Origin: an uncultured Planctomycetia bacterium
GTDB taxonomy: Bacteria > Omnitrophota > Gorgyraeia > 2-02-FULL-51-18
Reading direction: 5' to 3'
Assembly (NCBI GenBank): GCA_964642015.1
Contig: CAZXLF010000004.1
Span: 20,738-84,737 of the forward strand
DNA: 64,000 bases
Shown: one piece after another, positions 16,599-59,400 of the stretch
Position numbering within the stretch: the stretch's first letter is position 1
Layout: each line of letters begins with the position of its first letter
Made by a program: the position numbers and the translations under genes
Notes under the pieces: model-generated
The model's input: only the letters and a program-made list of their open reading frames with translations
Database searches by the model: none
What the model was told of the DNA's origin: nothing

Positions 16599-16647
16599 GT
16601 TCATAACGCCTGCGTGGTCAATCGACGCGAAGATCAAAAAATTGGAA

Positions 16648-17526: not shown

Positions 17527-17629
17527 ATAGACAGCTCAAAACTTAAAAATAAAAAGTCAAAACAGAGATCAAAACAAAGACTATTGATCCGGCTTTTGTT
17601 CTGACTTTTAACTTTTCGGTTTTAACTTT

Positions 17630-18643: not shown

Positions 18644-18644
18644 G

Positions 18645-19031
18645 TTATTTGAGAACCTTAAACGATTTCTGGCCGAAAACATAATCATTCACATAGATCC
18701 GAAACTCATAATCTCCGGGATGATCAAACTTCACCGACATCAGATTAAAAACAAGCTCACAGTCGCGTGATTTATCCTGCACCCGGAAATCTTTAATCAC
18801 CGCGCGGTTCATTGATTTTTCCTCGGTTAGATCTACAAGCTCCAAAACAAAATCAAAGACCCCCTCGATCTCCCGGAATTGCACATAGACGCTCATGGCC
18901 GGGTGAGTGGTCGGAAAATTGGTGCCCTTGATCCGGTCGAACAATCCAATCAAAGTTCTCTTGTGCGTGCCATCCTCCACGATCGTCTGATCACAGAGGA
19001 GCATCGCTTTCAATATCGGTTTGATCTGCAT
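18645..19031 (-). CDS. hypothetical protein (128 aa)
   Basis: ORF with coding-like composition, directly abutting the downstream moxR and the upstream TPM gene. No family recognized. Confidence 0.45.
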   Translation of the reverse strand: MQIKPILKAMLLCDQTIVEDGTHKRTLIGLFDRIKGTNFPTTHPAMSVYVQFREIEGVFDFVLELVDLTEEKSMNRAVIKDFRVQDKSRDCELVFNLMSVKFDHPGDYEFRIYVNDYVFGQKSFKVLK

Positions 19032-26412: not shown

Positions 26413-29400
26413 TTAAGCGGCTTGTTCGATCATTTTCTTCATAAGCCGGAAGAATTTGACCGTCTGATCGATGGGGGCTTTTGTGATGGCTTTTAAAGCA
26501 AAATGTAAAACTGTCTCTATAGTTGCTTTTCCTTCCAATATCTGTTTCAACGTTTGCGTATCGGGCCTTTCGCCAGCCAACGTGGCATAAGCGTCATGGA
26601 ACCCTTCAGGAATATTCGCGAGGTCTATTCTTCCAGAATAGATCGAGACTTTCAGCAAGGCCCTGAAAGCAGGCACTTCGCCTTCTGCCAATAAATTCAC
26701 CGGCATATTGACGAAACCCTGCGTCAAACCTTTCTGAGCTACATCGATCTTGACATACGCCGCGTCTTTTAAGTTTTCCGGTATTTCAGTTATGAAAAGC
26801 TCCTTGGCTCCGGGGTAATTTAACGCCTGTTGGACCAAATGATCCTTACCACTCACCTTGAAGAAAACATTCTTGCCGTAATTTGATGTTTGAGCTTTCT
26901 TGATCTCGACGATCAGATTATCCAGATAAAACTGGAATGAAGGATTGTCCATCAGATCAAGATCGATTTCAGCGATTACGGCTTTATCGATCGAATTGGC
27001 CACGCCTTCCAGATCGGCATCCACTTTATTGTTCACAGCATCGACCATCGAACGAAGATCCTGAATGGTCAGTGCGGAATTAAATTTATCTGACTGTGGA
27101 ATTTGCGTATTTACCGCTTTCTTTGAAAGTTCAAGTTCGATCGGACTGATTCCTTTCGCTTCGGCGATCAATTTTGCACCGCTCCGTGACAACGTAAATA
27201 TATATGGCTCGTTTGTTTCCTCATTGAGCTGGAGAGATAATTTCCTACCGTCCACTTGCGGGAATGCGAATGCCACGCCCGAGAAAAATCCTTCAAGCTG
27301 AGAATGAATGTCCTGCTTCAAACCTGGTTTGAAATCCACGGTCGGCGTGCTGGCCAAGGGGATCGCATGAACAGTTGCCGGTTTTTGTTCCGCGAGCCTG
27401 GCCCCGCTGGTCGCATCTATATAATCCCTTTCTATCTCATAAAAAGCGGTGGAGTTTCTTTCGACCAAACTCCTGTAATCATCGATGATTTGATGACCAA
27501 AAGCTATTAATTCCCCTGTTTTACGGTAAAGCGATCTTCTGAGATAAAACCGAATAAGCCCGTTCAATCCGCTTAGACTGAAATCCGCCTCTTCTTCAGC
27601 GCGATCTCGCATGATCACAAATGTTCCGCGCAAGATCCTTTCGGCTGCGACAGGTTTTTCCGCCCAAACAGCGACATGCACAAAATCATTACGGCGTACG
27701 ATCAAATGGTGCAGATCTTCGCCAATACGCGGGTAAAGTCGGTCAACTTTAGCCGATCCGTCCAAAGCCTTCTCTGCGCTGACAAGAAGACTTCCCGCCT
27801 CAATAAAAAGATCCGGTGAAGTTGATGCTGATTTGCCTCTCACGATCACCCGCGCGCGATCGGCATATCCCTTAGCCACAAGATTATTTCCCTTGATCAT
27901 AAGAGAGGCTATTTGATCTTTATGAATTTCGCTGACTACATTTCTATCCAAAAATTCCATACCAAAACCTAAAAGCTCCTCAGCGTGCATTAAGTCATGA
28001 GTACCCTCAGATACGGGAATATCGATGCCGACATGCGCAGCCGCGACCGCTTGTGCGGCAAACTTAATGATCACCTGTTCAGATTCAGCTTTGACACCAT
28101 TTAAAGAATGATGCTCCTGTTCTAGCTGTAACAAATGTGAGAAAGTTTCTTCGGCTAAATGTAAACGATCATGAGCAACAAGATCAATGACCAAGTCACG
28201 TTGCCCGATGATCTGACGGCGCAATTCGTCTTCAGAAATTACCGGAGCTGCGGGCAGAGCTGAGACAACTGAGACAGGTTCAAGCGAAACCGTTTTTTCT
28301 ACTCGCGGTTTTTGCACAGCAGCTCTCTGACGAGGCGCGCCCGCTCTCAACTCCGCAAATTCTTGGCGCAATCGCTCGACCGTTGCGCTGACTTGAGCAG
28401 CGCGCTCATTACCTTTGGTGCCTAAAACTTTCCATACCTGATCGGGAGACAATGCCTTATCAGCCATCTCTTGTTTCATGATCCTGCTGATCACAGGATG
28501 ACTAACTTCTACACGGGGTCCGGAAAGAATTTCCCGGATCTTTGGATAAACAGGCGGCTGCTGATTTTTTATTGCTTGGATTTCCTGCTCTATTTTAGAA
28601 AGTGCTTCTTCAATAGCATCCAAACGATTCGCGATGATCTCAGATTGCCGCTCTTTCGAAATGCGGCCTGTTGATCCTTCCGTAATACCGGCTGCTTTGC
28701 GTGCCGTCTGGCCCATGCGCCAAAGTACTGCTTCCGTAAGCGTACCGCCCTGCGCAGCGGAACGGTCCGCGACGTTGATAATCGTCGGTTCGCCGCCTTC
28801 CGCCAAAATTTCTCTCACTAAACGTTCGGTTTCCAAACGATATTCTTCTTTTTTGGATATCGCAAGTCTTGCGCCCTTCACAGGCAATACTTCCTGTATT
28901 TTACTTACCGTCTTATTCGCATCGTTAATGGCTTGTTGATTGATAGATCTCAACACAGAAAAATTACGCAAGAAAACACGGCGTGACTCACGAAGTGCAA
29001 CCGACTCAGGTGATAACTCGAAAGAAGGGCTGAAAACCAGTCCTTCTTCGGAAAGCTGCCAGGAACCGGAAATATCGGAAACCGGGAATAGCACCTGAGA
29101 AACAAGCTCCGAAAGAAATTCAAAAGTCCCAAAATTCAGCTCATAAACATGCAGTAATTGATTGACCAAAATACGGAACGCTTCGGCAGTGATCTTAGAT
29201 GCGGTAAAATGCTCGATGGACCTTTTTTCGTCGTTCGGTAAAATATCAAATGTTCTTTGAAAATATTCATGCGCGATCACAAGCCGAAGAGCGTTGGGCA
29301 AGCTTCTCAGCACGTCCGAAGCGATATTTCTATCTATGACAATATTGGGTTCACGGAATATGCCCGGCAACAGCGCTTCTATCGAAGCAACGTGCGCTTT

Positions 29401-32400
29401 CACAAAATCTGTTATCGGGAAGACATTATTTCTCATAAGATTAAACAAAACATTCAAGCTGTCTTGAACTTCATCACTACTGACAGTGACCGCTTGAGTA
29501 CGAGGTACCTGACGCTCAAGCCAAAGCCGGTAATAGCTTTCAATCCTTTGATTAAGGGTCTCTGCGGGGAACTTTGTCAGATCGATCACGCTGGCTGCAA
29601 ATTCCATCAAAGCGATCATCCACATCAAGCCTTGATCGATCAGATAAACATCCTGCCAGATCAGATTTCCTATATCCGGCGGGATGGAAGGATTTTCCGA
29701 TAACCTGGCACCCGCAGGCATCTGCTCGGAAGATGGGCGTAAACGGTCCGTGTTCGCGTAAGGGAAGAAATCCGGTATCACGCCATTTTTAAGGTCTTCT
29801 TTGATGCCGTTCCAATAAGTATCTTTCAATAAATCCGCATGAACTTGTTTAAACGCTTCGACCAAATAAGGCGGAACGAATTTCATGGTTTCCGTCTCAA
29901 GAAAATCAGGCACAAACCAGTCGCTATCAGGAACATAGAACCAATCATCCAAATTCATCAGCTGGTCCGGATCATAAGAAGGCCACGGCGGTATGGACTT
30001 GAAGTTCATTTCAGGCAGGTCTTTCAGATGATCAAAATCATACAGCACAACTATCCCGGAAGGTGTGATGCCGAAATTCTTAAAATCAAATTCGCCTGTC
30101 CAAACACCGGCCGCCGCCAAATCCTTCAACGCATATCCAAAATCAATAAGGGCTTTTTTTCTGTCCTCATCTGTTCTGCCCGGAGCCTCCCAAAACACAT
30201 CGAACGGCGTGACCTGCCTTTGAACATAAACACGCTTCAATAAGACAACATCGCCGTTGACTATGACCATTCTAGGAGCCTTGCGGACCAAGTAGTCCAA
30301 TAGATCCGGCGGGAAGTTGGTTCGCGGGATCGAGAGATTTTGAAAAGACATCGCGTCAAGCATCCTTCCTACCCGATCCATATCATGGACTTTTTGATAC
30401 TGCTGCATAGTGAATGTGTGATCCTGGCGGAATGGATCTATCTTTTCTGATTCGTCTTTCATGATCTTGAAAACATAGGGAAAATGATCAATAGCCAGCA
30501 CTTCCATGACTCTGCCTCGAGTTCCGGGAGCAAATTTGAATTGCGTGCCGGGCACCTCTAAACGTTCATTCAAAGCCTTCCTGAATTCTGTTTTAGCCAG
30601 AGTCTCAAAACCTATGGATGAATAAATATCAGAAAGCGACCGCTTGGGAAGGATGGATTCCAAGAATTTGGCAAGCTCGCGGTGATGTTCCGCTTCCACA
30701 TGGAAATTGGAACGCACGTAGCTGAACAAACGGCCGACTTCCCCTTCTCCAACAAGCACCGTATCCGCTTCAACGCCGGTCTCTGTATTCAAGAAAGGAA
30801 TTGCCAATGCAATATAACCGTTTTGTGTCACGATCCTCCCGACAAGATACGCGCCTTTGTTTCTGTAGAAAATATTCGGAAAAAATTCTACCTTATATTC
30901 TCCGGGAATATTGTAACTCTGTAATTTCGATTCCAATTTGCGCGAAGCCAGCTGAACGTCTGAATTAAGATCGAAAAATAGGCCTTTGAATGGCAAGCCA
31001 TTGAAAATATCATGAAACAATTGATCAGTGGTTCCGCCAGCGGTTTTTTCATACGTGCGGTAAAAACCTGCCGGCTCGATAACATCGGGAAGTTCACCGT
31101 TACTCAAATATTCAATAGGTATATTTTCTTCAGAAAATACGCGCCTCATAACAGAATACAAGAAAATAAGTGCCAAATCGCTGTCGTAGCGACCTTTTAT
31201 CAGTGATGAATAAGATTTTTTAACGTCCTGCCACGAATCGTAATCCTTCACACGATCTGACAACAAGGTTCGCACCTCCCCTTCAACCCGATTCAAAGTT
31301 TCCCGATAAAACCGAAGTCTTTCATTGGCATCGCTTAACACTCCGTTCCATTCACGTTTTTCAAAACGTAATGCTGAACGGCCAGTGATCCACTTGAATC
31401 GCGAATAATAAGCTTCATAATCTTCGAGTAGTTTTTTAGCGACTTCATCGGAGTTTGCGGCGAGTCTGGCTCCATAAAACTTTTGTCGGAGATCCTTCCA
31501 ATACTGAGGATTAAGCAATGTAGTGCGGAATGTCTCACTGAAAACTGGTTTATACTTATCGGGGGCTAGCGCCAAGATGATATGTTCGGGAACAAAATCA
31601 TTCGGAGACGCTGATATCCAATCTTGATCCGGCACATAAAGGTCTGCGCCCTGACGCACAGGAATAGAAACAATTTCTTTGGGTAAAGATTCAACACCGT
31701 CCTCATGGTCATAATAGACCACTCGTCCGCTCGGAAGGATTCCGTAATTGAACAATTCAAGACCTCTTGGAAGATAACCGCTCTGCGCCAATTCCTCCAA
31801 TGCCCGGCCCAAATCAATAACAGCTTGCTGTTGTTTTTCTTCTGAAATTTGGGAATCATAAAGATAAAGATTTAATGGCGTCGCATACGGCTGAACGAAC
31901 ACATCCTTTAAGATCACCTTGTCACCGCTGACAAATACACTATTCGGCGCAAATTGTTCCAGTTCATTCAACAATTGCTCGGAAAAATGATCCCGTTCGA
32001 GCGGCAGTTGGGTAATGTGGAGCGTAGGCAAAAAACGAGGGTGATTGATCTTTTCGGCTTCCGTATATCTTGCGAGCACGCCATTGCGGCCGATAAAATA
32101 TTTTTTATCTGACAGATCTCTCGGCACTTTAAAAACATATGGCAATGAAGGCAACACGAAATCTATCATTGCCTTACCACGCACACCAGGAGCAGGCAAA
32201 AATCGTTCGGATAGATTAGACAATAAATGATCATACAAAGCCGGTATAAATATATTTTCTTTCAACTGACCAGGCTCTAACTTCACAAACCCCGGTTCGG
32301 CAAGCCTTGCGCCGCTCCGCCCCTGCTCTGCGATGATATGTTCAACGATATCATTTCTTGTCTCATGGATCTGATCGACCAGCAATTTGCCGTACGCGAT

Positions 32401-35400
32401 CGATAACCGTATCTCAAAACCTCCATCGATCAGCCCTGTAAAAATATTTGAAAGAATATTCAAATTTAAGCGAAGCTGATTCCCCCGCAATTCGGTCAAA
32501 GTTAACTGGTTCAGAACCTGAACAAGTCTATAAATATCCCTTGGGTTGACCGCTAAGTTAATAAGCCAGCTACGCGCTTTGTCCAATTCTAAACTGAGAT
32601 TTGTTAACACCTGAGCAGTTTCATTTGGAATAAAAGGATGCTGTAACAATATTCGTATCGTTCTAAAGTAATTTGAAGCCAAACTCAAACGCTGTCTTGG
32701 GCCGCTTAGAGGTTCTTCAGCCAGTCTTGCGCCTACAGATAAAGTACCTGCCAGCACCGGTAAACGATAAAAATCGTCGTCACTACGCAAGTTTAGACGC
32801 GACGATGCGATCTTTTCAGCGAGAATATTTCCAGTCTCAACGGTTGGTTCCGAGCTAGCCCGCACGATCTGTGTTTTTACCCTGCGCCCGCTGTCTGTTT
32901 TATTAAAAATGATCGTAATAATTACCTGCTCAGAATTACCCGGGATCCTTTCCCTGATAAGCTCCACTGTAATCGGAGAATTAGGTATCTTTTTGTCTAT
33001 CGCTAACCGAGCACCTTTAGAAGACGCTTCAAGTCTTACCTGTTTATATGCTCTCTCAAATACATCCGCCAGACCACTTCCAAGCGCAGAGCGGACTTTT
33101 TGAAATTCTTCCTCATATTTCCCTTCAGCGTGCGCAATACTCGAATGTTCAAAATCGATGAAGCTTACAACCGGCATTGTATTAGCATCGCGATGTACAA
33201 AGATATGATCTTTTTTGAGCTCAAAAATATCGCGTTTCGCTTTTCTGATCAGGTCCTGGTGTACTACACCATAATTGTGTAGTCTGCCCAATGCCAGACC
33301 AAGCGCTTCAACTTCATCAGCTGTGATCTGCACCGTACCTATACTAAAACCATCAACCTGATCTAGAATGATGGCTTCTTGATCACCGGGCAACCTAATC
33401 CGATCGACTCTTGGGCCTATGCTTTCAATACCCTGATGATAAGCGCGGTGAGAAGCTAGAAATTCGGTCTTTAATTTTTCTTCGAGACCCGTCCCGTAGG
33501 TTTTTATGTAAAAGACAATCTGGCCTTCGCGTCCTTCTATTCGGATCCTGTATTCCCAAACGGCATCATCGATGCGCCGTTCGGACAATTCCGTAATATT
33601 TTCCAGATCCGTCAAACCCAAAAATTCAAACACTCTTTGATTTCCGGCTCCGAACCGGAGTTTGAATAGATCCTTCGCTTCTTCCCCTTTAAGTAACGCC
33701 AAGCGCGCACCTGAGGTCATTTCGTCTAAAGATTGAAGCTGTGCCAAAGCGTTATACAGCAATCCATTTTCCTGAAGCAAAACCCTGGCATTAGGGTTTA
33801 CCAATCCGATGGTTGCGTCACTGGCAATATTCCCGATCAATTCGTTCAATTGCTGAATCCATTCACCGAGGCGCATGGATCTCTTCAATGTTGAACGGTA
33901 ATTTACGGCAAACTGTTTATAAGAGCGTCCTATATCACCGGCCAAAACATCGATCTGGTTCTCCGTCTTGACCAATTGAGGCTTCCCCTGGAGTCTAGTA
34001 AAAAGATATTTAGCTTCCTTCAGCCAATACGAGGCAACATCCAAGCGGACAGTATAAGCAAACTTGTTATTAGATTTTGATGCCACATCGGACCAAGCGG
34101 TAAAGACACCTGCGAAATCGGAAACAACATCAGCTTCAGAAGTTTTGGAGATGGATGAAACCCGCGTTCTCAGCAAATCCCATGAAGTTTTTAAATAGTC
34201 ATAGGCTTTTTGTTGGTCATTTTCATCGATAGCGTCTGCGGCTAAAATAATGTTTTGCCGGGCCGATCGCAGATCGCGGATGATCTCCTGATTATCGGTC
34301 TGTTTTATCAGTATCTGCGTAATCGCTGAATCGATCCTGGGCGAGATCCAAACAACGAGTCCGTACTTTACCTGATCAAATTCGTGTTCGCTTGAAAGCC
34401 GCGCGCCGACAGTGTCGTTAAATAGTTGGCCGGAAAAACCCGGAACAAAATCCGAAGGAATCCTGTAATTATGAATCGTCGGCGTCTGGAAAGGATTATG
34501 AGTTTCATTCATGATCGCAAGATTAGCCTGCCGGCGTAATATTGAGGCGACATCCGCCTCAAGTTTGGTGCGGACATCTAAATACTGCCTGGACCATTTA
34601 AAAGCGTGTAAAAATGTAAAATCTTCGACTCTTTTCCGATCGAACGAATCCACGAACGAGATGTGCGTGCCGCCTCTGAGATATTTCCAATAATTGGATA
34701 CATATCTTCTTGATTCCGCGGTCAAAGAAGCGAGCGCCTCTTTTTGATGTCTGGCCTCCGGAGATTCGCCGTTCGGGCCGGCTTCCTGTATTTTTTCTTG
34801 CAGTTCCGTAAGGCGGCCCATGATTTCATCCCGCGACAAAACATCAGGCCCTTTTCCGATCTGCGAAAGCCTCCACAGTACACGGTAGTAATTCACGACC
34901 ACGAGCGCCTTTAAATCCAAAGACGCCGCCAACCCATAAAGATCTAAAAAGATATCCAGATCGCTTGAGACACTACTGATATCACCAAAAAAAGCGATCA
35001 GTTTGTATTGCACAAGCATGTCTAGCTCTTTCCAATACAACGCGGAAGTCACCTGATCACGGTCCTTATGCGAACTGATACTTTCAAGGTCTCTAATGAA
35101 CTCTGCCAGGTCCTGTCGGTCATACGGTGTCGTGAACCGTGCGTCAGGAGCTCCGACAAGACGAACCAATTTTCTTTTGAAATCGTCAAAACGCTTTTGA
35201 TACCAGCTGACGATAAAAAGTCTTCCGGCCACTTCCGTATAAAGCAGATCTTCAGATGCCTGGATGATCTGCCTTTTAACATCGGAAGGTACAGAATCGC
35301 TAAATTGACGGGATTTTAGATATTGGTTCAATCTTGGTTTGATGAATTCATCAAGAGATTTGCGCACGGTTTCTTCTGTGTCCCAATTCCTAGCGTCCAT

Positions 35401-38400
35401 GGCAACAATAAGAACCGGCAATTCAAGCTTCAGAAATCCAATGAACGGTGAATCCGTCTGACTGATGCCCAAAATTAAATACAAACGAAGCCTTCCCAAT
35501 TGGGACGCCAAACGAGGTTCAGTGTCTTTAAAATACTCTTTTGCCTGCTGGATTTGCTGTTCGGTCGCAAAAAGTTGATTGTATGCAGGAATATTCCGAA
35601 GACGAGCCGGATCAACCTTTCTGACTCCCAGATAAACTTTGGCATCAGATTCTATCTTCCTGGCTTTCTGTGCTTTAAACGCATCAAAATGGTCCACGGC
35701 GTCCGCCCACTGACGGTAATAAGCCTCAAATTCTTGTAACCATGCCTCGACTTCCGTCAGCGCAGAACCATTATTTTGAAAGCGGATAAGCCGTCCTTTA
35801 AGCTCAGCGATATCGGGAACATTGCCGGCATCATATCCGGCTGTGATAAGAGCTATTCTGACGCGCTTTTCATTGGCTTCGATCTTTTCCATCTTCTGCA
35901 TCGTCTGCTCGAGGGACAAGCGCAACCATTCAGGGTATAGAGCACTTTCAGAAAAATGTTCAGTCGTTGATAGCCGCGCGCCTGACGCTGGAACATTTGC
36001 GCTCTTGCTGATCTTCAAACCTTTCTCTTCTAAAAATCTCCTTAATTCTTCCGGCTTTGATGTATTAAAGAAAAGAAAGAAATGATTTCGTCCCACTTCT
36101 TCCATGTTCTCAAGGCCGACGCGATCCATACTCACCGCACCGATCAGACCTTTTAACTGCATTTCAGGGATATTTCTTCTAAGGAATGACCGAAAAGCCC
36201 TGAATCTCATATGGGCATCGGTCACTTCAAAAGCAACATTCTCATTCTTGAAATAATGCAGCGCATCTTCCAGTTCATAATCAAGCTTCGCAAGATCCGA
36301 TTCTTTAAAACCGCCGGCGAATTGTCCCTGTCCGGATAGCTCGACATATTTTCTCGACGCATTCACAAGCCTTCTCCAATAATCGCCTTTGTTGATCCTT
36401 TCAAATATATTCTTTCCGTTTTCGGGATCATAAATCTTCCAAACAGCAACTTGCAGTTGCTCTGAAGCAACTAAACCTGAAACAGTTTTATAAGAGATGA
36501 CCTGTTTCCTATTCGGGTCATAACCTATCCGATAGATCAAACGCATCGCAGAATCGAATGAGCCGACTCCGTGAAGTTTTCTTCCGTTCTCTTCGACGGA
36601 ATTCTGATCGTCAACAATGATCGATTGCAACACCAATTGTTCGGCACCTACTCCGGTAAGGCCGGTGTAACGTTTTTTGTAGGGATCGATTCGTTGTAAA
36701 ACTTTTTTCAGCAGAACAATATCATCGGTGATCTGATGAGGACTCCCGCCCAATTTCCTGATCTGGCTCATCTGATCCTTAAATAAATCGGAATACAACG
36801 TCCGGTTCTTGCCTATGGTCAACTGGATTTTAAGCGGCTTCTGAGCAGAATTCTTAAGCTTGATCGTGACCATCCGACCCAACGCATTAGCTTCTTCATT
36901 TTTTTGGATCATATCCACGTGATAACCTAAATTTCCGAATGACTCTGTCAATTTTAGAATGAAAAGAGGCAGATTATGCTCATAAACAGACCAGAACCTC
37001 TCGATATCCTGATCATGATCAAAAAGCAACGCAAAATCAAAATCCGCGTTATCATCGATGAACGTGCTACGTCCCCTGGATCCTGTCTGAATAAAGCGAT
37101 GACTGCCTGCCACGATCGATCTTAATGACTGATCTAGCGCCCGAACAACGTGCCTATTCTTTTGGCGATAATCCGCTGCAAGTCGAGCTCCGGAAGCGAC
37201 CAAAGTAACTGCGCCTTCAAAATCCTTACCCAATCCTCTTAAAGGCACTTGAATGCCATTATCCAGAATGATCACACCATATTTTTCTGAACCGATTGCT
37301 CTGACTTCATATCTAAAGAAAACACCTTCTGTTTCGAATGTTTTGCTGTCATTTTTAAAAGATATCTCGATCTTTATCCGTTGACCTTTTTCCAACAAAC
37401 CGGAATTTTGGACAACAGCGGAAAGATTGAGCGTCGGATTCGTTTCTGCTAAACGTGCGCCGTTAGCTTGAGGGCCGGTTTCAACAATGTGCTTCATTTC
37501 TGCTAAAAACCATTCTAATTCGTCGAGCTGCTGGTAGTTTGACGCGATAACAACCGTGTTTTCTCTGGCGTCTAAAACCAGATCATGCGCTCTATACAAA
37601 TAAGCCTTGGCCTCTATGATCAGTTGGTCAGCTTTTTTGACATCTTGAACTTCAATAGCTTCTCTTAAAACGGGAATGATCGACTGGAATGCTTTTAACG
37701 GTTCAAGATAGTCTTGCGATGAAACACTAGCAGAAGCTGGTTCATCCAAATTTTTTTCTTCCTCTGGCTTTGGTAAATACCCTAAACTCCTGAGTTCCTT
37801 CTCGTATTTTGTTTTTTGCGAAGGAGTTAATTCTGCCAAAGACGTAGAACCGACCCACTCAAAATTTCCTTCAGCAGTTTCATAACCGCGGCGAAGGATC
37901 GCTTGGGGCATAAAAGAATTGTCGAGAACAACTATTTCAAGTCCTGGCCGTGGTATAGAATCATGTTCGACGTTCACAAACCGAATCAGCAATGGTTTTT
38001 CATGATAAGACAAAGGTGTGCCCACATGAACTCTTTGTCCGTTACGGTCATTCAGAACGTGCGTCGGCACGCTATCTTGTCTGCGGCTGCGACTCGAGAC
38101 CTCAAGAACAGACTGTTGTTTTGCCTTGGATACAGCAAAACTTCTAAAACGTCTGGTCGCTTCTTCCCAAGGGCGCTCAAGCTCATGGGTTTCGGGATTG
38201 TAATATTTGCTTGAGATGAATGCCCTATTCTCTTTTTCTTTGGATGTAAACTTGCCGCGATTGGCGTCGTCATCTTTGGTCCGATAAATATCAATGCGGG
38301 ACACTTCGGCCTGAGAGTTGACAATGATCACTTCCGAGGGTATCTCATCCAGTTTTGCGCGAAATTCATCTCCCAATCGCAGTGCGATACCTCGCGTCAA

Positions 38401-41400
38401 AAGCGCTTCACCTTTATCATCCAATTTGACTTTGTGAAAATATGGCTGCGCGGCTTTACCATCGACAAGATTTTTGTAAAACCAAATCATTGTGCCCGGA
38501 ACTAAAAAGTAGATCGGGTCATAACGCTTGGTTCTGGTGTTCCATTTCCATTTTCCTACCGCTTGTTTCACATCGGTCTCATCGGGACTTAAAAATCCGT
38601 AAGCATAGATCTCCTTTTTGATACCTTCTTCTCTTTGACGGATATAGATAAAAGCCGTGTCGGCGCCTTTGGTGACTTCTTCGGATCGCAATTCCATAGG
38701 GCGATGAAAATTAACTGTCCTGTCTCCGATCCGGAACGCATAAAAGTTCGCCGTTTGGTTTTGTTGCCGCTCGACCTTCACCGCTCCGTCAAGAACAGGT
38801 ACGTCCTGTATTTTGAGGGTAGCCAATTTCAAGTGAACATGGCTGTTGCCTATAATAAAGCCCTTATCTTTTGAATAATAAAATGCTTTATATGCCATTG
38901 ATTGAGTGCTTGAATCAAAAATATGAACCCATAAGAAGCCTTTCGCATCTTGGCTGAATCGAAGAATAACCGGTCCTTGACCGGGTAGGCCGGGCTTAGG
39001 AACAATGATTCTGCGTTTGTCAGCTTTATTAGTTTCAAGCCGGAACAAAATCACAGTGCCTCGGACGTTTAACGCTTTTGAATATCCCGGCTGATCGAGG
39101 CCAAAATTTTTAACCAAATACGCGGCCGCTTCCTGATCCTTGTCGACAAAAGCTTTTTTCATTTTTTCTGTCAAAACGCGCCATTGAGAATCAGATATGC
39201 CTTCAGCTTCTTCACTTAATCTTGCGCCCGAAGTAGATTCGCTCAACATGACGACCAATTCATTTTGCAGATCACTTAATCTTTTATAGTGGGAAGCGAT
39301 ATAAGCCAGATCCCTTTTCTCGTTCTGGGCGATCTGCGATGCCTCATCGAGAAGTCTTTCGGCCTCGATCGAAATACTTAAAGCTTGATCTAATTTTCCG
39401 CGGTTAACCAATTCTTCCGCTTTTTCTATTGCTAGATCAAATTCCGACAGGAATCTATCGTGAGAACTTATGCCCTCAACATTTAAAGTTTCCAGCGGAA
39501 CAGTCTGGTTTAATGATTGTTTGATCCTTTCGAGCCGTATCCTGAACTCGGCGGATTCAGAAACCGGCTTGGAAGCAGCGGGCAATTGATTTTGAAGGCG
39601 AAGTGCCGCGTCTTTTCTCAAGTGTCTAACTGTATCAATAGTGACCGCACCGAATCTGCCTAAAATTTTTCGATGTTCAAGCTCATAAGCGATCGTCGCA
39701 TCATCGGCCTGTTTGGACCCGCCAATACCGTAAGTCATGAACATCACTTCCGCTTCAAGGAATGATAGTTTGCCAAAGCGTTCGATCACTCTGTCTTTTC
39801 TCACACCGATCTCCTTGGATAACCAATCAATGCCGCTGGGATAGAGATGGATCTTCTGACGTGCTTGCGCAACCAGACGTTTGAGATTGCCCGGCGAGAC
39901 AGGTCCTTTAGACCTGGCGTCTTTATAACCCAGGTCCCAAAGTTGACGGGCGATCTGAACCAGTGAAAGCTTTTCATCACCAAGAACATAAAAAAGCTCT
40001 ACGGCTTTTCTTTCCCGCAAGGTCAAGATATTCATACGGGTTTCCGTCAACTGCTCTCTTTTTAATTTGATATCATGGGCCAATACGTACCAGCCATCCC
40101 TTAAGGGAGGCCTGTTCTTTGTCAAACGCAGAGGCAATCTCAAATAATCGGCGCCAACACCTCCTGCGAGAAGATAATTGCGGAGCGTTTGGAGTGAGAT
40201 CCTATGAAGATGGGACAAAGAATTATCGTTGAATTCTTTGTCGCGATATTCTCTTACTTTCTTTTTTACTTCCTGGCCGATAGAACTAGCCAATAATCTG
40301 AAAACGACCCGGTGAGTGCCGATCCCATAGTAATTCTTAAGCAAGATCTGTACTCTTTCGGGCAATTGAGACAGCACCTGATCCGTGATCTTTTCAGATT
40401 CTACGCCGATCTTCGTAGCCAAAACCTCGCGGCCTGTTTTAACATCTTTAAGCTGCTTGACGGTTAAATAGCGTCGAAGTTGAAGTTGGGCTGGCGAAGT
40501 ATAATAACGATTACCCTCACCTTTGATGGCTTCGAACATCTTTTTGTAATCCCTGATAACCGGTCTGCTTATTCCATAATAATAAGAAAGAACCTGCCAT
40601 TGCTCGACAGGTATGGCGTAGATCAATTCTGAAGTGAGCTTCTCAACTGAGATTTTGGCATCAGCGGCCAAACGATTTAGAGCAACGGCATTTTCCTGGA
40701 AAAACCTGTCATCATACTTAGAAAGCCGTGCACCTAAGATGGATTCCATGCCTGATCCATAAGTCCGTGCAAATCCGGCCTTTATTTGATCATCGTTCAG
40801 GCTCGGCACTCTCCCCAAGAAAGCTGCCTGTATCAGATCGTATTCGGACCTTAATACAGATCGATCAGCATCTGCTTTGGCATATTCGAAATCGATGAAC
40901 GAAACTTGATTACTCTGCTCGTCCCAAAATATATTTTCGTTCGTGAGCTCGATCCTTCCCTTCATCTTGTTCTCAAAGCAGAGATCTCTATGTGTGATGC
41001 CTAAAGCATGTAAACGTCCCAAAGCAAACGCAACGGCGCCCATCAAATCCCGGCTTTTTTGTTTCATATCAGAATCTGTCAGTCGGCGGCCTTTGCTTAA
41101 CGTCGTTAAAAGCATGCCTGAAGCCGGTAGAAAATAGATCGGAGGCGCTAAATGATACCGGCCTGCCGACCGCGTTGTCTCATATTCATTAAAACGCTTG
41201 GCAGAATATTCCGGCGAATACAACTTCGTGTAAAAAACGATCTCGCCTTTATCGCGCAACGTCAGCTGGTGACGATAAACTGTTCTGCCGCTGACTGTTT
41301 TCAATTGAGTGAAATCATAATTTACGATATCAACCGGATCTGAAACGCGCGCGACGTGCATCAACGCCTCAGGTTCATCGTTGCCAAAAAATGCTTTGAA

Positions 41401-44400
41401 TTTTTCCTGCGCCAGCCGCGCGCCCGGCGGGTTACGTAAAACTAATTTCCATTTCTGTCCCTCTTCTTTACGAAAACCAAGAGTCTGCGCGATCTTGGAA
41501 GTTTGACCGTCCAAAGAAAGATCTTCCACTATAATATAGGCGACGTTGGGAGATTTCTTTAACGATTCCAGTGCTGCTTCGAATAATTTCCTTCCCAGGC
41601 CTCTTTGCCGATAATTGCGGTCTACCGCGATCTGAGTAATCTCACCCTCTTCGTTCCCCATATCAATGAATGTTCTGGCAAATCCCACGACTTTTCGTTC
41701 TTCATTGCGGACAACAAAAACCTCTCCCTCCACTTCTTCGTTCTCCTGCAAAATACCCTGCATGAAAAGCCACAACCGGCGCCTGTATTCTTTAACATCA
41801 CCGATCAATGGCCGATTCAGGAACGGCATATATTCGTTCTTCCACAGTTCTGCGATCTCATCAACGTCGTCCAATCTCGCCCGTTCAACGCGAGATCGCG
41901 AATCCGCTAGCCGGGCGCCAGACGAGACTGAGATGCCTGTCACAAAGTTTTCCGCCACTAGCCTCAATGGGTCTTGACGATAACTTTCCAAGAGCGGTGC
42001 AGCGGCCGGATTCATCCGTTCCAATAAATGCCATGTGACCTCAACAAAAAGTTTGACCATGGCTCCGTCCAAATAATAATGGCCTTGTGTATCATCTTTT
42101 ATCAGTTTGGCGTTCTTTGTACGAGCCAAACGAATGGATAAATTTGTATCAGACGTGGCAATAAGCGGGTCTTTTCCGCCTATTACAATGAGCGCGTTCT
42201 CCAGGCTTTTCAATCGATTGATATCTCTCCGCGGGATCGCAAGCAAAGGCATTTTTCTGACTATTTGCCAGAATGTTCCATTAAAAATATCTTGGAGCTC
42301 TCTGCGCATGACAATGATATTCATAGGATTCCAAAATGTACCGATAAGCGGAGTGTGCATGATTACTTGGGCAGCGGTTTTGATATTGCTATTCAGTAAA
42401 TGCAGGAAAATCGTATAACCGCCAAAACTAAAACCGGCCATTCCTATGCGTTTTGCATCTATACGCTGATCTTGGGCAAGAAATCTCAGAGAAGCATCGA
42501 CCGTCTCAGTGAGGTCCTGCGACGAATTCATTGGCGCCCCATTTTCGCCATGATGAGGCAGGTCGATACGCAACACGGCAAAACCCGTCCAAACCAAAAG
42601 TTTTTCCAATAAATTGAGATAAGGCTGCTCTTTGCTGTGCGTTAAGCCATGCAATAGAATGACCGCAGGCACCGGATGATCTTTCGATGCGTTTTCAGGC
42701 AGCACATAAAAACCGGGAATATCAGGTTTTTCGGGAAGCGGGATCCGCTGGTCAGGCAGGATCACGGGATTCATTCCGCTGCGGCGGTAATCCTCTTGCC
42801 GGCCGCTGACAAATAGCTCTCTCAATTCTCTCATTAAGCGCCGGCTGCGATTGGGCGAAAGAAGGTAGGTTGAAGCGATATACGCCATATTGGCTTTGAC
42901 CAAAGGATTTTGTTCGACCATCGCATGATAAGCCCATTCGCGTTTCCAAGCGTCATACCAGCCAAATCCGCTGCGGTTCAGGATCTCGATCAAAACCCTC
43001 CGTGCAGTAGCTCCATCAATACCATTGGCATGCGCCATTACATATTCATGTTTCGAGAACGCCAATTTCAGGCGCAATATAAAGCTTTCTTTTTCTGTTC
43101 TATAGTTGCCGGGTCTGACAACTTTTCGGGACTTTTCGGTAGTCACAAAGAAACCATCTTCTTCCAAGCTCTTGAACATGCGCTCGGAAAGAAGTGTGCG
43201 ACCCAAACTCGAACGAAATTCCTTGATCGTGCCGGAATCGAACAGTAACTTGACGGCACGCCGCATGAAACCTTCTTTTCCGACCCCGATCTTCATATAA
43301 TCCACTTGCATGGTACGACGGAAAAAACCTTTCAGGTCTGCTTTTGCCCACGCGACAACAACCGGATTCTTCGGATCAGTGATGTCAAAAACCAGCAACA
43401 GATCATGCCTTTTCTTCTCGCGCCTGAAATCGATCCCTTTTAAGATCACAACTTGAATATTGCTACCCAAATCCCTAAGGTCCCGAGCAACACGGTAATG
43501 TTTTGAAGAGGTAAGGCTTTTTATCTTGGCAAAATAAGGCCTGACATCCATCCTTTCTTTTCTTGGTGTTTTGTAGATGTTGGCCAGCCGCGCGCCTTCT
43601 GTTATAAGTCCGCCTTTGACACCGATAATGCTGTCTTGGATATACCGGAACGATCCCCGCAAGGATCGGTCTTCTATAAGATGCACTGTATTCAAAGAAT
43701 AAACTGCGCCGGCCGCTTTGATCAGTTCTTTTTGCACAGCTTCGGTCATTTCGCGATTCTCTTGCCCTTTATAACCGGCAAGTCTGGCTCCGCCTACGAG
43801 AGAATTTATACTGCCGTCTAGGTAACCTCCTTCAAAAACTTCCTCTACTTGAGACCGGGCCAGTTCAGGTGCAGCTTCTTTTACCACTAGCAGCAGATCA
43901 CGATATTCATCTTCCCTTCTAAGATTCGTCAATCTTTTTGCGCCGCCAAAATCAATGAACTTAATATTTCTTCCGTCCCAATAAAAATGATCCCTCCGGA
44001 GAAAAAGCCTAGGTACAAATGCAAAAGCGCCCTTGTTCAATGCATCGCTATAATCAGCACCGATCAAATCGTTATGCACAAATCCGGCTTCATAATGCAA
44101 GCGGCCTAGCGCAAAACCGATCGCTCTCACGATCGGGAGCGTGATCTGAACCAAAGGAGCTGATGGGGGCAAAGTCTGCGTTTCATCCGGACCCAATAAA
44201 ACTCCGTCGGATTCCTCTTGGGACAGAAAAACAATTTTGTTTTCGGTATCGATCAACAGGCTTTTTGGAGCAAGCCCATATTGATGGATCACGTTTGTAA
44301 TCTCGGCTTCGCGTTTCAAAGAGAATTCAGACCAGGTCTTTGCCAGCCATCCTATGACAGGTATGTCGTATAAAAGACCGTAATATTCTTTCGAATAAAA

Positions 44401-47400
44401 TTTGAATGTTCTTATTGCTCCGCTCTGATCGCGGACCGCCAATTGGTGCTCATTGACCGATCTAACAGCAAGCCATGCTCTTCTTTTGGATTGAGCTGCG
44501 ATGCCGTAATCAACAACGGATAACATCTGATCCGAATCTGTTAAAAATCGAAGCACATCCGATGAACGCTCACCAAATATCCTATAGAATCTGATATCAG
44601 ATACTTGTTCGTTATACATAGCAAGCCGTGCGCCACTGTCTTTTTCAAAATCAAAAACTTGCTGAACTGATTTTTGTTCAGGCATTTGAGTTGAGCGATT
44701 AAGATCAGCGATAATCTGAATAATATCGATCAGTTCTTGCCGAAGATCTCTCAAAGCACGTCTCTGATTCCAGCGAATATTCCAACGAAGCACCGTCTCC
44801 ACCGCACGGCCTAAATTTTGCAGATCACTAATGCGGATTTGTTGACCTGATCTGATTCTTTGACGGAGTGCTCCGGCGGCATTTCTCAGTTTGTAGGAAT
44901 TCAAAGTGAAATTAGATGCTCTTCTGACTACTGCTCTGATCCGTGATTCAATTTCCGTTTGACCCGCTAGGCGAGCGCCCTGCTGTTCTTTGCGGGCTCG
45001 AATCCGTTCATTCACAGTTTTCATAAAAACAGGCAGTTTGGATTTTGCGATGACTCCAATTTCGCGTTTTATCGCTTCTCCGATACCAAGCTGCTCTGCA
45101 TCGGCTGTAAGTGATCGCGCGCGGTCCATGAATTCAGCTCTATCGTCAATCCGGCGCAGGGCATTAACATTTTGCCGTAAGATCTTGGCGGGGTCAGGAA
45201 CTGCAACCGGCTCCAGTTTCTTTGGACGTTTTTCTGTCAAAGCGGCAGATGGCTGGGGCGACACTTCCTTAGCGGTGTGGGGCTTCGCTCTTTCCTCGGC
45301 AACAAACTGCGCAAGATCAAATTGATGTTTGCTCTTCCAACTGAAATAACGAGCCCGGGACTGTTTAGAGTCAGCAAGCCCAAGGCCTTTTAAGACCATT
45401 TCTTCCGTGACTTGCTGATCGGCTGGTACACTTGTAATGATCGCGCGGATGCGATTGTAACGCTGCGTTTTTTCAATCATTACCATCATGTCCCGCACTT
45501 CGGGACGGTCCTTATGAACTTCAAACCATCTCCACAATTCTGTCTGAGAAACTTTATCCGAGGCCTGAATAGTAATGGTTCGTGCAAGATTTCCCATGTT
45601 GATCTCTTCTGTCGGCTGTGTAGTCAGCAAATAAATGATCGCACTCCGCGCAGCTTCAAGTCTCATCTGATAACCGCTACTATGTTTCTTCTCCAAACTT
45701 TTCCGCATGATATCAATAGGCTGAGTCCACTGAATACCCAACGCTTCAAGAGAAGCCGGCTTCAAACTATAGACCTGGCTCATCGTAAGACCTGATCTTT
45801 CGGACAAAGATTTTGGATCAATAGGAATAGATGCTGCCTTCATTTCGGCAACAATAGGTGTTAATATTCGAAGTTTCTGTTCGTCTTTCAGTCTTTCGGA
45901 AGCGAGCCGTGCGCCAGACTTGTCTTCAGCATTTCCGTTGGACACTTGAGAGGCTTGATCTCTGGCAAAAAGGACCGATTTCAATGCCAAAATATCCGCA
46001 GCCGTTCTCCAGTCCGTGTCGTATTGTTTTCGTACATCGTCGACGTTGTTCACAGCGTTCGTCAAACTATCTTTGAGCTTTTCGATAACGATCTCTCTCG
46101 GCCACCTTTCGTTAAAAAGATTCTGCTGCCATTCATAAAATGATACGGTAACACCTCCGGCATTAGCGATAGAATCAGGAATCACGATGCTACCGGCCTG
46201 AAGTAATTTTTCATAAGCCTCATTTGAAATAGCCCCATTAGCGCCTTCGATCACAATATCCGCGTTCAACTTTTGAACATTTTCTTTGGTAATGGAATTT
46301 TCTTTAGCGTTGGCATACATGATAAATGTCTTAAGGTCTAAGAACTCATCTCTAGAATTTAAAAGGCGCGCGTTGTGTATTGTATATTCCGGCTTTGAAT
46401 TCAAGCTCGCAAATCCATTCGGGGCTGCCTTTAGACGAAGTAACGTTTCGATGTCTTTCTGATTGAAACCAGATTCCAAATAAATAATGCCTGACATTTC
46501 GGCGATCGCCTGAAGCTTGATCCCGTCTTTGATGGCTTCAAGCGCGGCAGGGATGCCCACTCCGCCAAGGCCTTCCATCTTTGCCGTCATTCCTTCCAGA
46601 CGATTCCATCCCAATTCCAGACCAACGATCGTTTTTAATACATGTTCAACGCCAAATCCCGTTGATTCAGGACGAAAATGCGATCCCGCATGATCAACAT
46701 CAATGACCTCGGCGCCTGTGACATCCTTTTTAACCAACAATGTTTTTGATGTAAATGTGGCCAGGCTGATCGCTAATTGACCCAAAACCGAATTTTCCTG
46801 AACAGGGTACCCTGTTTGTCTCAGAGACGTAAAATATTTAGCGACAACAGTCAGATAGGGGGTCTGCGTCATTGCCTGCATTCTTTTGCTACGATAATCG
46901 CTTTCGACCTGGTCCAAAAGTTGCTGTAGATCTCTGGGATACGCTTGAAATTCTGTTCTCTTCCCATCGGGCATCGGCGTTTCTCTGGCTTTTTGGATAT
47001 GCAGTTTAAGGTATTCATCCGTCATGATATCCATATCCGCCGCCGTGCTTCCCATGTCGGGCGCCGGAATATCGGTGCGCGGTCCTACTCTGCCGGCCTC
47101 AAAGAGGGCTTGTATGAATCGCCTGATGAAATCTGCTCTCAACCGACCGCTTGTCTCCCTGTCTAATCCCTGACTATAATCTCTGATCACAAAAGATCCG
47201 TTTTCTTGCTCAACATCGGCAAATAAAATAACTCCTTTAGCTCCTCCATAGGGTAATTTAGCAGCAGCCGACTTGATCGTCATGCCTACTGCAAGCGCTT
47301 GGGTTTCTTCTCTGACCCATTTGCGCAAAAAATACCTCAATTCGTAAATATTCATTCTCGCGCGGAATTGATTGAATAATTCCATGAACCCCTCATCGGA

Positions 47401-56400: not shown

Positions 56401-59400
56401 AACCGGCAGGATTTGATGAGAACGGCGAATAATGATTTGTTTTAAAAATTCTTCATCGCCGGGCTTGATCCGGTCTTCCAATCGTCGCTCTACAGTTTTT
56501 AATTCAGCCTCGTTCTCGAAATAAAATGGCTCATAGCCATTCCGAATCAGAAGGAAATTCGCCAACAACCAAGCCAAACGATGATGTCCGCTCGCCGCGT
56601 TGCTGAGCGTGTCATTTCCGCTGGATTCTATGATCTGATTAAATCCGGGCCTTCTGAAAAAAATCTGATACGCGGCGATATAAGCATATAGTTCTGCCGC
56701 CATATTTGGCGCACGATCAGGCTCTTTAGAAGTTTCGTTGACCAGATAAACGAGTGAATTATAGGGCCAAGCCATCCTGAGCTGTCTTTGATTGCTCTGA
56801 AGATAATCAGGGTTGGTGTCATCACCGCGAAGCTTTTCATACAATGTCACTATCTCCGGCCAGGTTATGTCTTGGATCTTTTGATCCGCATTGGTTCTAA
56901 CTAAAAGAGAGTTTAAATAGTTCACGGCTTCCAGAAAATGCGGATTGCGGTTGTAAATTTTCTCGGCATCGACCGTAACCTGCCCGTTTGCCAAACGAGT
57001 GCCTTGTGCAATGATCCGGTTTGATGCGAATTCAAAACCTTTTTGAGTCAAAGCATATGTGCGGATCGGTACCGTTTTCATATGCTGATCCACTGAAGGA
57101 ACAGCCCTGATCGCTTTATGCGTGACATCCACGAGATCGATCCATTCGTTTTTCAGTGCTTGCGATAATGCCTCCTCAAAACTCAAAGTAATCAAAATAA
57201 GGTTAGGCTGGAACAGCGTCCCTACGACAGCACTTTGCCGCACTAAACTGATCACAAGTTTTTCGGCGGTCCACTGTGTTTCTGTCAACCTAGCGCCTGA
57301 CTGACCAGCCGATGCACCGTTTTCGGATTGGCTCCTGTCCTGTGTCGTTTCCGCAAGTGTCAGAAGGTCACGAAGCTGCTGTTCACTGAAAGGCGTGATC
57401 TGTATGTCCCTATTTTCCAAGAGGCGTTTTATATCTTGGAAAGCCGCGCGATTCAAATCTTCTTGCCTGGGTAAAAGATAGAAATGCACATTGAAATCTT
57501 TTTGCAGCTTGTGCAAACGAGACAGCGCTTCTTCATTTGCGAAAAAATTCCTCAAATCGTTCAAATCTCGGTAAACCAGTTCCACAAAACCGGCTTTTTC
57601 CGGGATTTGAGCTGTGGACCATTCATGTATATACACGCGTGTGCGTAATTCGTGTGTTGGTTCCAATTCTTTGACCGGAGACAATCGGTCAGGAGTGATC
57701 GAATGCAATACAGCCAGATCAAGCGGATTTGCGCGATGGATATCGTCCAATAACTGCAGGATATGTCTGTAATTTAAATTTTCTTTTAGTTGTTCGGCAT
57801 TATAGTAAATATAGTGGCCGTTATTTGAGCCTGTGTTCGGTCCTCGGATAATTAAAAACGGTTTTTCTTGAGAGCCGATCTCGAAGGTCTCGCCCAAATC
57901 GCCAAATTTATAGGTAACGGAATTATCGGATACAGCTATAGCTCTCACCTCTCCTGTTGCCTTCGCTCGTTCAAGATGAGCAACCAAATTTTCGATTGGT
58001 TCCGCCGATTCCGCCAGCCGAGCGCCATTCCTTTGCAAGAATGAATTCAGTTGATCAAGCGCTTTTCTCAGATAACCATCGTCACCGATCAAAACTAGAT
58101 GTTCTTTTTTTAGAGCATGCGCATACTCATCTGTCATCAGACGTTCGACAATGAAGTTAACCTGATAGTGAATACCTTGCGCCATATCGTCATACATAGA
58201 TTCGGTGGCTCTGTGTTCTTCGTAGTCATCGATCAACTCCTGAAGCTGATGGCGCAATGTTTCCAATTCAGCCGCGATGGGCGCCGTCACCTGAACGCCG
58301 GACCGTTTAAACGCCACAAGAGCCGCGGATAATTGATCTTCTGCCGATTCCAAATTCGACAAGGGAGGATTTTCTGCAAACCGCGCTCCGGTCGGTTTTA
58401 AGTTCAACGCGCCAAATTCATTTTTAAGCATCTCCACAACATTTAATCTCACGCCATCTACCAAGGCTGTCGCTTCGGCGGCCGGCAGAACACCCCATTG
58501 ATCACGAGGATGCTCTGTGGAGGCCGATTTTGTACTGTCTGGCTGATTTAACAAAATATCTTCGTACTTCTTTATGTTAGTTTCCTGAAGAACTTGCGGG
58601 ACAATCGAAACATATGAGACGTTCCGTTCTTTAAGCAACGATTTCAGATGCTCGGTATGATAGCCGCCGGCGACTAGGACGGCTTTCTCGATTTTTTCCT
58701 CATCCATTTTTTTAAAAAGATTTTTCAGGAATGCTTCGTCTCTTTGCCTTGTGAGAGCATAAAATTCGGTGGCTTTTTGGAACGCCTCATCGTAGCCGGC
58801 ATCCAGGAAAAGAGCGTCTTCATAATGAGATGCCAGATCCATGATCTTTTTATTCAAGAAACCGCTGATTTGAATGATATTAAAGCTCTGCGGATCTTGG
58901 TCCAGTGCTCCGAAGTCCTGTGTGGTGAGGTTTAGATTAAATAGGCGCTTTAAAATTTCACAGCAGCCGTCAACCTGATGAAGTCTTTTTTCATCCGCGG
59001 TCCTCGCCAATGATTCATAAATCAATGATTCTAGGTTTTCTTTCTCTATGATGACTTTCTCGGGATTTACTTTTTCAGCTTCTTTCAGATAATCGAAATA
59101 TTTAAAGAGTTCGGGATATTCGTGAGCATTCTTGAGCTTCTCTTCCAAAAGCGCATAGAACGCCTTGGCTTCTTTGTGCTGGAACGCATCGATCGCAAAC
59201 GGATTATTGAGACCCTTCAGGTTTTGTTCGGTGAGTTCGACTTGATCTGTCTGAGAAAGTGATGAAAACGCTTTGATCTGTTCTTCGTTGGCTTTGCTAA
59301 AATCGATCGCAGCTTCTTTTTCTTTGATCTTCTTAAGCGCCGCCAAATAAGGGAAAGATTCAACAACATTCAGACCCATCTTCCTTGCTTCGTCGTTCAG

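Follow-up and report, generated by a model that had tools for sequence, protein, structure and literature searches.

Among the giant genes described in Omnitrophota are a 'multi-enzyme' class and a group that contains SecA (West-Roberts et al. 2023 preprint; 10.64898/2026.06.07.730766). In the available portions of this work, proteolytic cleavage and a predatory lifestyle are suspected, the cleavage points are stated as unknown, and the domain repeats of the long proteins are reported to be old and dissolved at the nucleotide level. The existence of giant proteins in Omnitrophota, with many tiled enzymes and with repeats of diverged domains, is already reported. Here we analyze a 64,000-nucleotide stretch of an uncultured Planctomycetia bacterium placed by GTDB in the Omnitrophota (contig CAZXLF010000004.1; the whole stretch is hereafter the window, and all coordinates count from its first letter), in which a single open reading frame (ORF) contains three copies of a kinase-like module, K1 to K3. 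Similarly to the described giant multi-enzyme proteins, its product exceeds 10,000 amino acids, tiles many unrelated enzyme domains in one chain, includes a SecA DEAD-like domain, repeats domains that have diverged at the DNA level, and begins with a domain that maps to metagenome-assembled genomes (MAGs) of Omnitrophota, in many copies per genome. In the available text of the two cited works we could find neither the kinase module nor the junction motif described below, nor any mention of the conserved N-terminal domain, and literature searches returned no relevant report on the motif GARLA, nor on Bud32 together with Omnitrophota, a giant protein or a polyprotein.

By profile comparison, the nearest known family of the modules is Bud32/PRPK, the ATPase-kinase of KEOPS. 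To our knowledge, Bud32 is not a bacterial protein and is confined to archaea and eukaryotes. We consider it reasonably probable that the three modules are active, minimal, Bud32-like ATP-dependent kinases or ATPases, each forming a bead between two junctions in the giant protein. The host ORF and the modules are located as follows.

26413-60123, reverse strand: uninterrupted giant ORF of 11,236 amino acids, host of K1, K2 and K3.
43792..44634, reverse strand: kinase-like module K1, segment S14, residues 5164-5444 (281 amino acids); family hidden Markov model (HMM) E=7e-52, no Pfam match.
40735..41424, reverse strand: kinase-like module K2, segment S18, residues 6234-6463 (230 amino acids); AlphaFold2 (AF2) pLDDT 96.9 and pTM 0.91, Foldseek kinase fold with probability 1.0.
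33016..33711, reverse strand: kinase-like module K3, segment S25, residues 8805-9036 (232 amino acids); homologous to K1 and K2.

An earlier note on this DNA had read the three segments as paralogous APH/Kdo-kinase-like domains of one motif organization, lying between 33030 and 44430. Their paralogy holds: pairwise BLASTP relates S14 to S18 at E=3e-11 (26% identity over 279 columns), S18 to S25 at E=3e-11 (28% over 161 columns) and S14 to S25 at E=3e-7 (38% over 77 columns), values that rule out chance similarity, and the three-way alignment has 40 invariant columns. When all 32 segments of the ORF are compared with one another, the only internal paralogues are S14/S18/S25 and two AceK units, and neither the family HMM nor the segment comparison found a fourth copy of the module in the giant ORF. 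The range given earlier covers the modules but clips about 68 residues from the N terminus of S14 and 5 residues from the C terminus of S25. Likewise, one architecture is indeed shared by all three, while the motif strings need small corrections: S18 reads VFYTK / ALGRLHALGITHRDL / VSFIDFE and S25 reads VFYIK / ALGRLHNYGVVHQDL / VSFIDFE, whereas S14 reads TFKFYSK / ALGRLHYEAGFVHNDL / IKFIDFG, with three residues, not two, ahead of the Gly. The note's statement that these are not recent DNA duplicates also agrees with our data, as the copies share no significant similarity at the DNA level (best blastn match 21 nt, E=0.053).

Starting from a profile of the three copies (A1), we built a 44-module alignment and a 33-sequence alignment (A2) from its relatives, and the AF2 model of S18 was computed on A2. 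The model opens with an N-terminal helix (residues 2-25) and three long strands, the third ending at K67 (FYTK), then the αC helix (71-88), to which E80 belongs, a pair of short strands, and a hinge whose Gly is invariant. Next come helices αD and αE (LGRLH), H145-R-D147, a β-hairpin (149-160), N164 and the strand after it, another strand, D178-F-E, and just two more helices. This is the bilobal arrangement of the protein-kinase-like fold, with a β-rich N-lobe and αC, a hinge, and a helical C-lobe that holds the catalytic and DFG loops. A Foldseek search of the model against the PDB gave 389 matches at E<=1e-3, of which those listed are almost all kinases; the top matches, each with probability 1.0, are Cdc7, the Kae1-Bud32 fusion 3en9, RIO1/RIO2 and Bud32-Cgi121 (4ww9). 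Given these matches, the modules almost certainly adopt a protein-kinase-like fold, as the earlier note had proposed, and K1 and K3 should share the bilobal structure because they are homologous to the modeled K2.

The family label fared differently. Against Pfam gathering scores of 23.2 bits for APH (PF01636) and 21.3 bits for Kdo (PF06293), S18 reached 13.3 and 17.9 bits, respectively, next to equally sub-threshold matches to Choline_kinase (20 bits) and Pkinase (16.6 bits); S25 matched Kdo only (14.5 bits, sub-threshold), and S14 had no Pfam match. APH therefore had no match in K1 or K3, and RIO1 (PF01163) had none in K1-K3 and a single one, at E=0.0018, among the 33 family members. Over the same 33 sequences, Kdo matched weakly in 14 and Pkinase in 5. 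In a search of PDB sequences with the A2 profile, Bud32/PRPK chains come first (9x4g_B at 3.7e-13, 8unk_B at 2.3e-8, 8k20_B at 2.7e-8, 2vwb/3en9 at 1.7e-7, TP53RK at 4e-7) and Hanks-type kinases appear from about 1e-6; the lead of Bud32/PRPK over any other kinase is about five orders of magnitude, and no RIO, APH, choline-kinase or WaaP chain is within the best 60. Bud32 thus replaces APH/Kdo as the closest relative.

The modules are nonetheless not members of Bud32. The archaeal Bud32 model TIGR03724 (arch_bud32) is the commonest NCBIfam match of the family, found in 27 of the 33 sequences with a best E of 1.2e-12, but every score is far under its curated cut-off of 125 bits, and K2 itself reaches 23.9 bits. 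By comparison, P0048, a weak match of the protein search described below, scores 233.7 bits as a bona fide Bud32; no other non-family match of that search was placed in a named family. Nor did a partnership with Kae1/TsaD emerge, by fusion or as a KEOPS neighbor: a Peptidase_M22/Kae1 domain was looked for in the giant ORF and its neighboring genes, and none was found. The modules resemble Bud32/PRPK (TP53RK) in their minimal size of about 200-230 residues, in a truncated C-lobe without an activation segment, and in the series LGxLH, HxDL, IDFG, a subsequent Glu-containing helix and a C-terminal F..GY-type helix; Bud32 is both their best sequence-profile match and among their top fold matches. 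Unlike Bud32, they are bacterial and lie inside giant proteins without Kae1, their N-lobe is not alignable and includes an extra N-terminal helix with an F..FG motif, and their catalytic loop carries an insert of 4-26 residues and, mostly, a His for the Asn. Because the scores are far sub-threshold, the catalytic loop is interrupted and the Asn is exchanged, the sequences place the modules outside Bud32, and we label them 'Bud32-like, unclassified'. No Pfam or NCBIfam model covers the module family at its curated threshold.

Other families are further away. RIO1 and RIO2 share the atypical minimal kinase fold without an activation loop (Foldseek E about 3e-6, TMq about 0.5), but the RIO-specific N-terminal helices and flexible loop are not seen in the modules. 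Kdo/WaaP (PF06293) and APH/choline kinase (PF01636, PF01633) have the protein-kinase-like fold and an active site of the HxD...N...D type, and match weakly over the catalytic-loop region of the modules; yet they have no match in K1, rank below Bud32 and Hanks-type kinases, and, in the case of APH/choline kinase, possess a large helical substrate-binding subdomain that the K2 model lacks.

Analysis of the putative active site shows which residues each copy keeps. K1 has K5245, E5272, H5350-x-D5352, H5379 at the position of the catalytic-loop Asn, and D5391 in IDFG; K2 has K6300, E6313, H6378-R-D6380, N6397, and D6411 in IDFE; K3 has K8874, E8887, H8955-Q-D8957, H8973, and D8990 in IDFE. The catalytic set of the fold (β3 Lys, αC Glu, HxD Asp and DF(G/E) Asp; placed on secondary structure by the AF2 model of K2) is consequently complete in all three, including the catalytic and metal-binding Asp residues. 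Across the 44 modules, whose mean column identity is only 23%, the β3 Lys is conserved in 84% (with Arg in a further 9%), the αC Glu in 89%, the HxD His in 98%, the HxD Asp in 91%, the DFG Asp in 95%, and Gly112 in 100%. It is this strong conservation of the catalytic positions that argues for a working active site, and the modules are probably catalytically competent ATP-dependent enzymes.

The catalytic loop departs from the canonical form. In place of an Asn four residues past the Asp (HRDxxxxN), the three copies have a spacing of 15-26 residues, with an Asn in K2 only: the insert measures 26 residues in K1 (D5352 to H5379), 16 in K2, where it is modeled as the β-hairpin, and 15 in K3, and across the family the Asp is 4-26 residues from the His or Asn. 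Directly ahead of the strand after the loop, 80% of the 44 modules have a His and 18% an Asn. Two family members, P0049 (NEDWKPDHVYL, cf. HRDLKPENILL) and P0041, retain the canonical four-residue spacing and thereby fix the register, so that the loop His occupies the position of the metal-binding Asn of other kinases. Since this His replaces the Asn and the loop is interrupted, the chemistry of the modules may differ from that of standard kinases.

Relatives were obtained with the three-copy profile, in a search of 1.84 billion representative proteins that used no word index. This returned 52 matches, 21 of them with E below 1e-10, and most are located within proteins of 1,000-7,656 amino acids. 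Word-indexed protein searches with A1 or A2 gave no matches, A1 pattern scans of GTDB genomes and JGI metagenomes gave no confirmed relatives, and the first ~3,900 residues of the giant ORFs at 77 genome loci hold two weak matches to the kinase module only. A neighbor-joining tree of the modules is star-like, and S14, S18 and S25 do not group together. They are no nearer to one another than to modules of other giant proteins: S18 shares 34% identity with the P0008 module and only 23-26% with S14 and S25, while the two copies within P0001 pair in the tree, as do the two within P0002. Because the three do not group, the tree indicates that they are ancient paralogues or separately recruited cassettes; the old-copy reading agrees with the published old, nucleotide-dissolved repeats of Omnitrophota long proteins. 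No conserved neighbor module accompanies the kinase module across more than 50 relatives, and in other giant proteins it is flanked by the junction motif of that lineage. The same module was also observed in a second family of large proteins (P0013, P0014, P0016, P0021, P0034, P0043), whose N-terminal region is different and conserved (…FWVNLRPD.P.N.ID…TLKVMLEEDY…). Since it occurs in both families, the cassette has passed between large proteins of at least two kinds.

In the giant ORF, each module opens with GARLA and closes at the next GARLA or GARLS, and the earlier observation that the modules are bracketed by GARLA junctions is exact: every segment fits precisely between two GARL[A/S] sites.

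44620..44634, reverse strand: GARLA opening K1, residues 5164-5168.
43777..43791, reverse strand: GARLA closing K1, residues 5445-5449.
41410..41424, reverse strand: GARLA opening K2, residues 6234-6238; in the AF2 model ARLA makes up the first turn of the N-terminal helix, after a G in coil.
40720..40734, reverse strand: GARLS closing K2, residues 6464-6468.
33697..33711, reverse strand: GARLA opening K3, residues 8805-8809.
33001..33015, reverse strand: GARLA closing K3, residues 9037-9041.

The ORF contains GARL 29 times, against 0.38 expected from composition, and together with the variants GARFA and GTRLA this gives 31 junctions that split it into 32 segments. The junctions are always between domains and none is inside a Pfam envelope of the giant ORF. 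The junction motif has the strict form (S)-G-A-R-L-(A/S), and its flanks are not conserved. Every Gly (four), Ala (four), Arg (six) and Leu (six) codon is in use, so that selection acts on the junction peptide; a role at the DNA or RNA level is ruled out by this use of every synonymous codon. In most related giant ORFs, the commonest 4-mer is GARL/GARM, and other lineages have RSE[VM]R, RSELR, SSSP[AV], RSSP or DAAM at the same module boundaries, the kinase module included. PIRDEL was seen as another alternative junction motif in other lineages. We regard the junction as a candidate processing site, as its pattern is one that a site-specific protease would produce.

The start of the protein places the gene among the giant genes of Omnitrophota.

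58390..60123, reverse strand: conserved N-terminal domain of the giant-protein family, segment S01, residues 1-578; used for this placement.

S01 consists of a hydrophobic anchor or signal and an α/β core split by a helical insert. Its N-terminal ~530 residues are common to 14 giant matches (jackhmmer E 1e-96 to 1e-192), and D90-A91-H92, Q98, E120, E173, R461-D462 and G486-G487-x-H489 are invariant across 13 proteins, so that the domain of the giant-gene family, with its D-A-H, Glu, R-D and G-G-x-H positions, is present here. A pattern scan of GTDB species genomes, for which a 4-sequence alignment was used (the 13-sequence version was too diverse), found 236 relatives of the domain. Of the 77 loci kept, most are titled Candidatus Omnitrophota or 'uncultured Planctomycetia', and many genomes have several copies. 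Six loci were observed in the MAG CAYODQ01 (L011, L025, L032, L040, L056, L077) and six in JBLINS01 (L029, L031, L037, L039, L043, L071); since single MAGs hold six or more such genes, they form a multi-copy family within genomes. S01 has no significant match in PDB sequences or Pfam. Its AF2 model (pLDDT 75) finds erythromycin esterase EreC and BcR135 as best enzyme-like Foldseek matches, at E 0.2-0.7 and thus not significant; the superfamily of such esterases includes the TIKI and TraB hydrolases, and S01 might, by this faint structural resemblance, be a processing enzyme.

Many giant proteins also share a C-terminal tail, composed of a strand, (P/K)(I/V/M)D and an amphipathic helix that ends in ...Q(S/A)A(A)-COOH. 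In the present protein, it comprises the last ~40 residues (26416-26540, reverse strand), ending ...APIDQTVKFFRLMKKMIEQAA, and it was also seen in P0002, P0005, P0010, P0015, P0017, P0018, P0025, P0027 and P0049. The tail might be a sorting, secretion or degradation signal.

Among the remaining segments, Pfam identifies a SecA-like motor (S09), a Glu/Leu/Phe/Val dehydrogenase (S11), an α/β hydrolase (S16), a GNAT domain (S17), and two AceK modules.

31474..32313, reverse strand: AceK kinase-domain-only module, segment S28, residues 9271-9550; PF06315, 2.2e-42.
29713..31473, reverse strand: full-length AceK-like module (regulatory + kinase), segment S29, residues 9551-10137; PF20423 1.2e-67, PF06315 6.8e-65.

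Both belong to AceK. S28 scores 145.8 bits with the kinase model PF06315 (gathering score 29.3), and S29 scores 219.6 bits with the same model and 228.7 bits with the regulatory one (gathering score 25); S28 is 31% identical to the kinase half of S29. AceK is, like the modules, an atypical kinase-fold family, and its two copies are whole GARLA-bounded units, but it has no sequence relation to K1-K3 (family HMM E=0.15 on S29). With the three kinase-like modules, the protein has the five phosphotransferase-type modules that had been counted earlier. Several segments match stand-alone proteins in length (AceK 587, GNAT 165 and kinase 230 residues). In segment S22 (residues 7645-8047; 37192-35983 region, reverse strand), GSRGRSTFIDDNADFDFALLF resembles the G[GS]...D.D nucleotidyltransferase motif, with no Pfam match at E<=0.01.

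A Kyte-Doolittle scan of the giant protein gave four peaks, of which the two at residues 20-38 and ~1860-1878 (54571-54500, reverse strand) are probably membrane segments. Should both be membrane-spanning, S01-S07 and S08-S32 would be on opposite sides, and the ATP-, NAD- and acetyl-CoA-dependent modules, including the three kinases, would share one side.

The flanking genes are ordinary chromosomal ones, namely IlvD, PanE, transketolase, a FGGY-family carbohydrate kinase, a Bat/MoxR operon and 2-oxoacid:ferredoxin oxidoreductase; no protease is among these housekeeping neighbors. The Bat/MoxR-type operon is complete (9849-18688, reverse strand: MoxR AAA ATPase, DUF58, an unannotated ORF, BatA-/BatB-like VWA proteins, TPR proteins and BatD) and is on the same strand as the giant gene, about 7.7 kb beyond its 3' end. 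A tRNA-Pro(TGG) is located at 1427-1503 on the forward strand.

We therefore propose, as the reading we favor, that the three segments would be complete, separately folding copies of a minimal protein-kinase-like module, each of which would bind ATP and a divalent metal and then transfer or hydrolyze the γ-phosphate. Their mode of action would probably resemble that of Bud32 or RIO, either an ATPase switch or a kinase for a single, tightly bound partner, because they have no activation segment, no C-lobe substrate-binding helices, and a variable catalytic-loop insert, through which specificity may differ from copy to copy. A truncated C-lobe together with a variable insert leads us to favor a dedicated bound partner, with an ATPase switch or a small-molecule kinase as alternatives. 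The modules would be on the cytoplasmic side, together with the other cofactor-dependent modules, because only two hydrophobic segments were found (residues 20-38 and 1860-1878), and they may act either as part of the intact chain or, should the GARLA sites be cut, as released units. Several observations weigh against this proposal. The canonical Gly-rich loop is absent (the β1-β2 turn of K2 is S-G), an insert interrupts the catalytic loop, and K1, K3 and 80% of the family have a His for the metal-binding Asn. In the structure, the Lys-Glu pair and the DFG conformation are putative, and the cytoplasmic placement comes from a crude hydropathy scan. Finally, since the A1 pattern scans of GTDB and JGI gave no confirmed relatives, no orthologues of the giant gene were obtained with which to test purifying selection on each copy.

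Some of these observations fit a different role. Without a Gly-rich loop, with Asn replaced by His in K1 and K3, with 15-26 residues inserted into the catalytic loop and with DFE for DFG in S18 and S25, the modules could be pseudokinases, that is, nucleotide-binding or purely structural scaffolds without phosphotransfer. We consider this improbable: every catalytic position is kept in the three copies and in 84-98% of 44 very divergent modules, modules that lack the Asp are a small minority in the A1 profile domain table, and the replacement His is itself conserved (His and Asn together account for 98%), which points to a selected role in the active site. The modules could instead be small-molecule kinases of the Kdo/WaaP or APH/choline-kinase type, which would phosphorylate a sugar, lipid or similar metabolite in a metabolic assembly line. 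The weak Kdo matches in 14 of the 33 sequences and those of S18 to Kdo (17.9 bits), Choline_kinase (20 bits) and APH (13.3 bits) are consistent with this role, as is a giant protein of the 'multi-enzyme metabolic cluster' class described for Omnitrophota, with GDH, AceK and α/β hydrolase as metabolic modules; moreover, the true Bud32 also has a secondary Kdo kinase match, and the families are therefore hard to separate. All of these matches are under curated cut-offs, however, and S14 has none, Bud32 is far above other kinases in the family profile without an APH, choline-kinase or WaaP chain in the best 60, and the K2 model has only two helices past the DFG motif, as against the larger helical subdomain with which APH and choline kinases bind their substrates. 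Taken together, a small-molecule substrate seems unlikely.

The junctions lead to another explanation, in which the giant protein would be a polyprotein cut at GARLA and the freed kinases would target a host or prey cell, where they might, for instance, mimic or disturb archaeal Bud32/KEOPS. A strict five-residue junction without conserved flanks, encoded by all synonymous codons and always between domains, is consistent with such cutting, as are the same or lineage-specific motifs at the same boundaries of related giant proteins and segment sizes equal to those of stand-alone proteins (AceK 587, GNAT 165, kinase 230 residues). The available portions of the published work suspect cleavage and a predatory lifestyle. 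Furthermore, the nearest family, Bud32, is archaeal and eukaryotic, and some Omnitrophota prey on archaea. Yet there is no evidence of cleavage, no protease was identified, and no secretion signal is shown for the cargo. ARLA forms the first helical turn of the module in the AF2 model, with no extended linker, the modules are only ~20-25% identical to Bud32 with an N-lobe that does not align, and the giant ORF and its neighboring genes contain no Kae1-like partner. Exported kinase cargo is thus very unlikely in our view. To the wider proposal we give a slim chance: that GARLA sites would be polyprotein cleavage sites, that the Bud32-like modules set free would be small, separate kinase-ATPases, a branch in bacteria of an otherwise archaeal and eukaryotic family, that they might be used by predatory or parasitic Omnitrophota on archaeal prey (e.g., on KEOPS/t6A) or to regulate the other released enzymes, and that the kinase fold would have here a new catalytic variant, marked by the conserved His and the loop insert.

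In sum, within a class of Omnitrophota giant proteins that is largely unannotated, about 740 residues without a Pfam match at threshold become a testable family of enzymes, of which active Bud32-like kinases or ATPases would be the favored form. The family is unusual in that its nearest relative is Bud32, its metal-binding Asn is systematically His, and its catalytic loops have inserts of 4-26 residues. Being exactly bounded by a strict five-residue junction motif, the modules are convenient test pieces for the processing of giant proteins, and the same cassette recurs in more than 40 other giant proteins.

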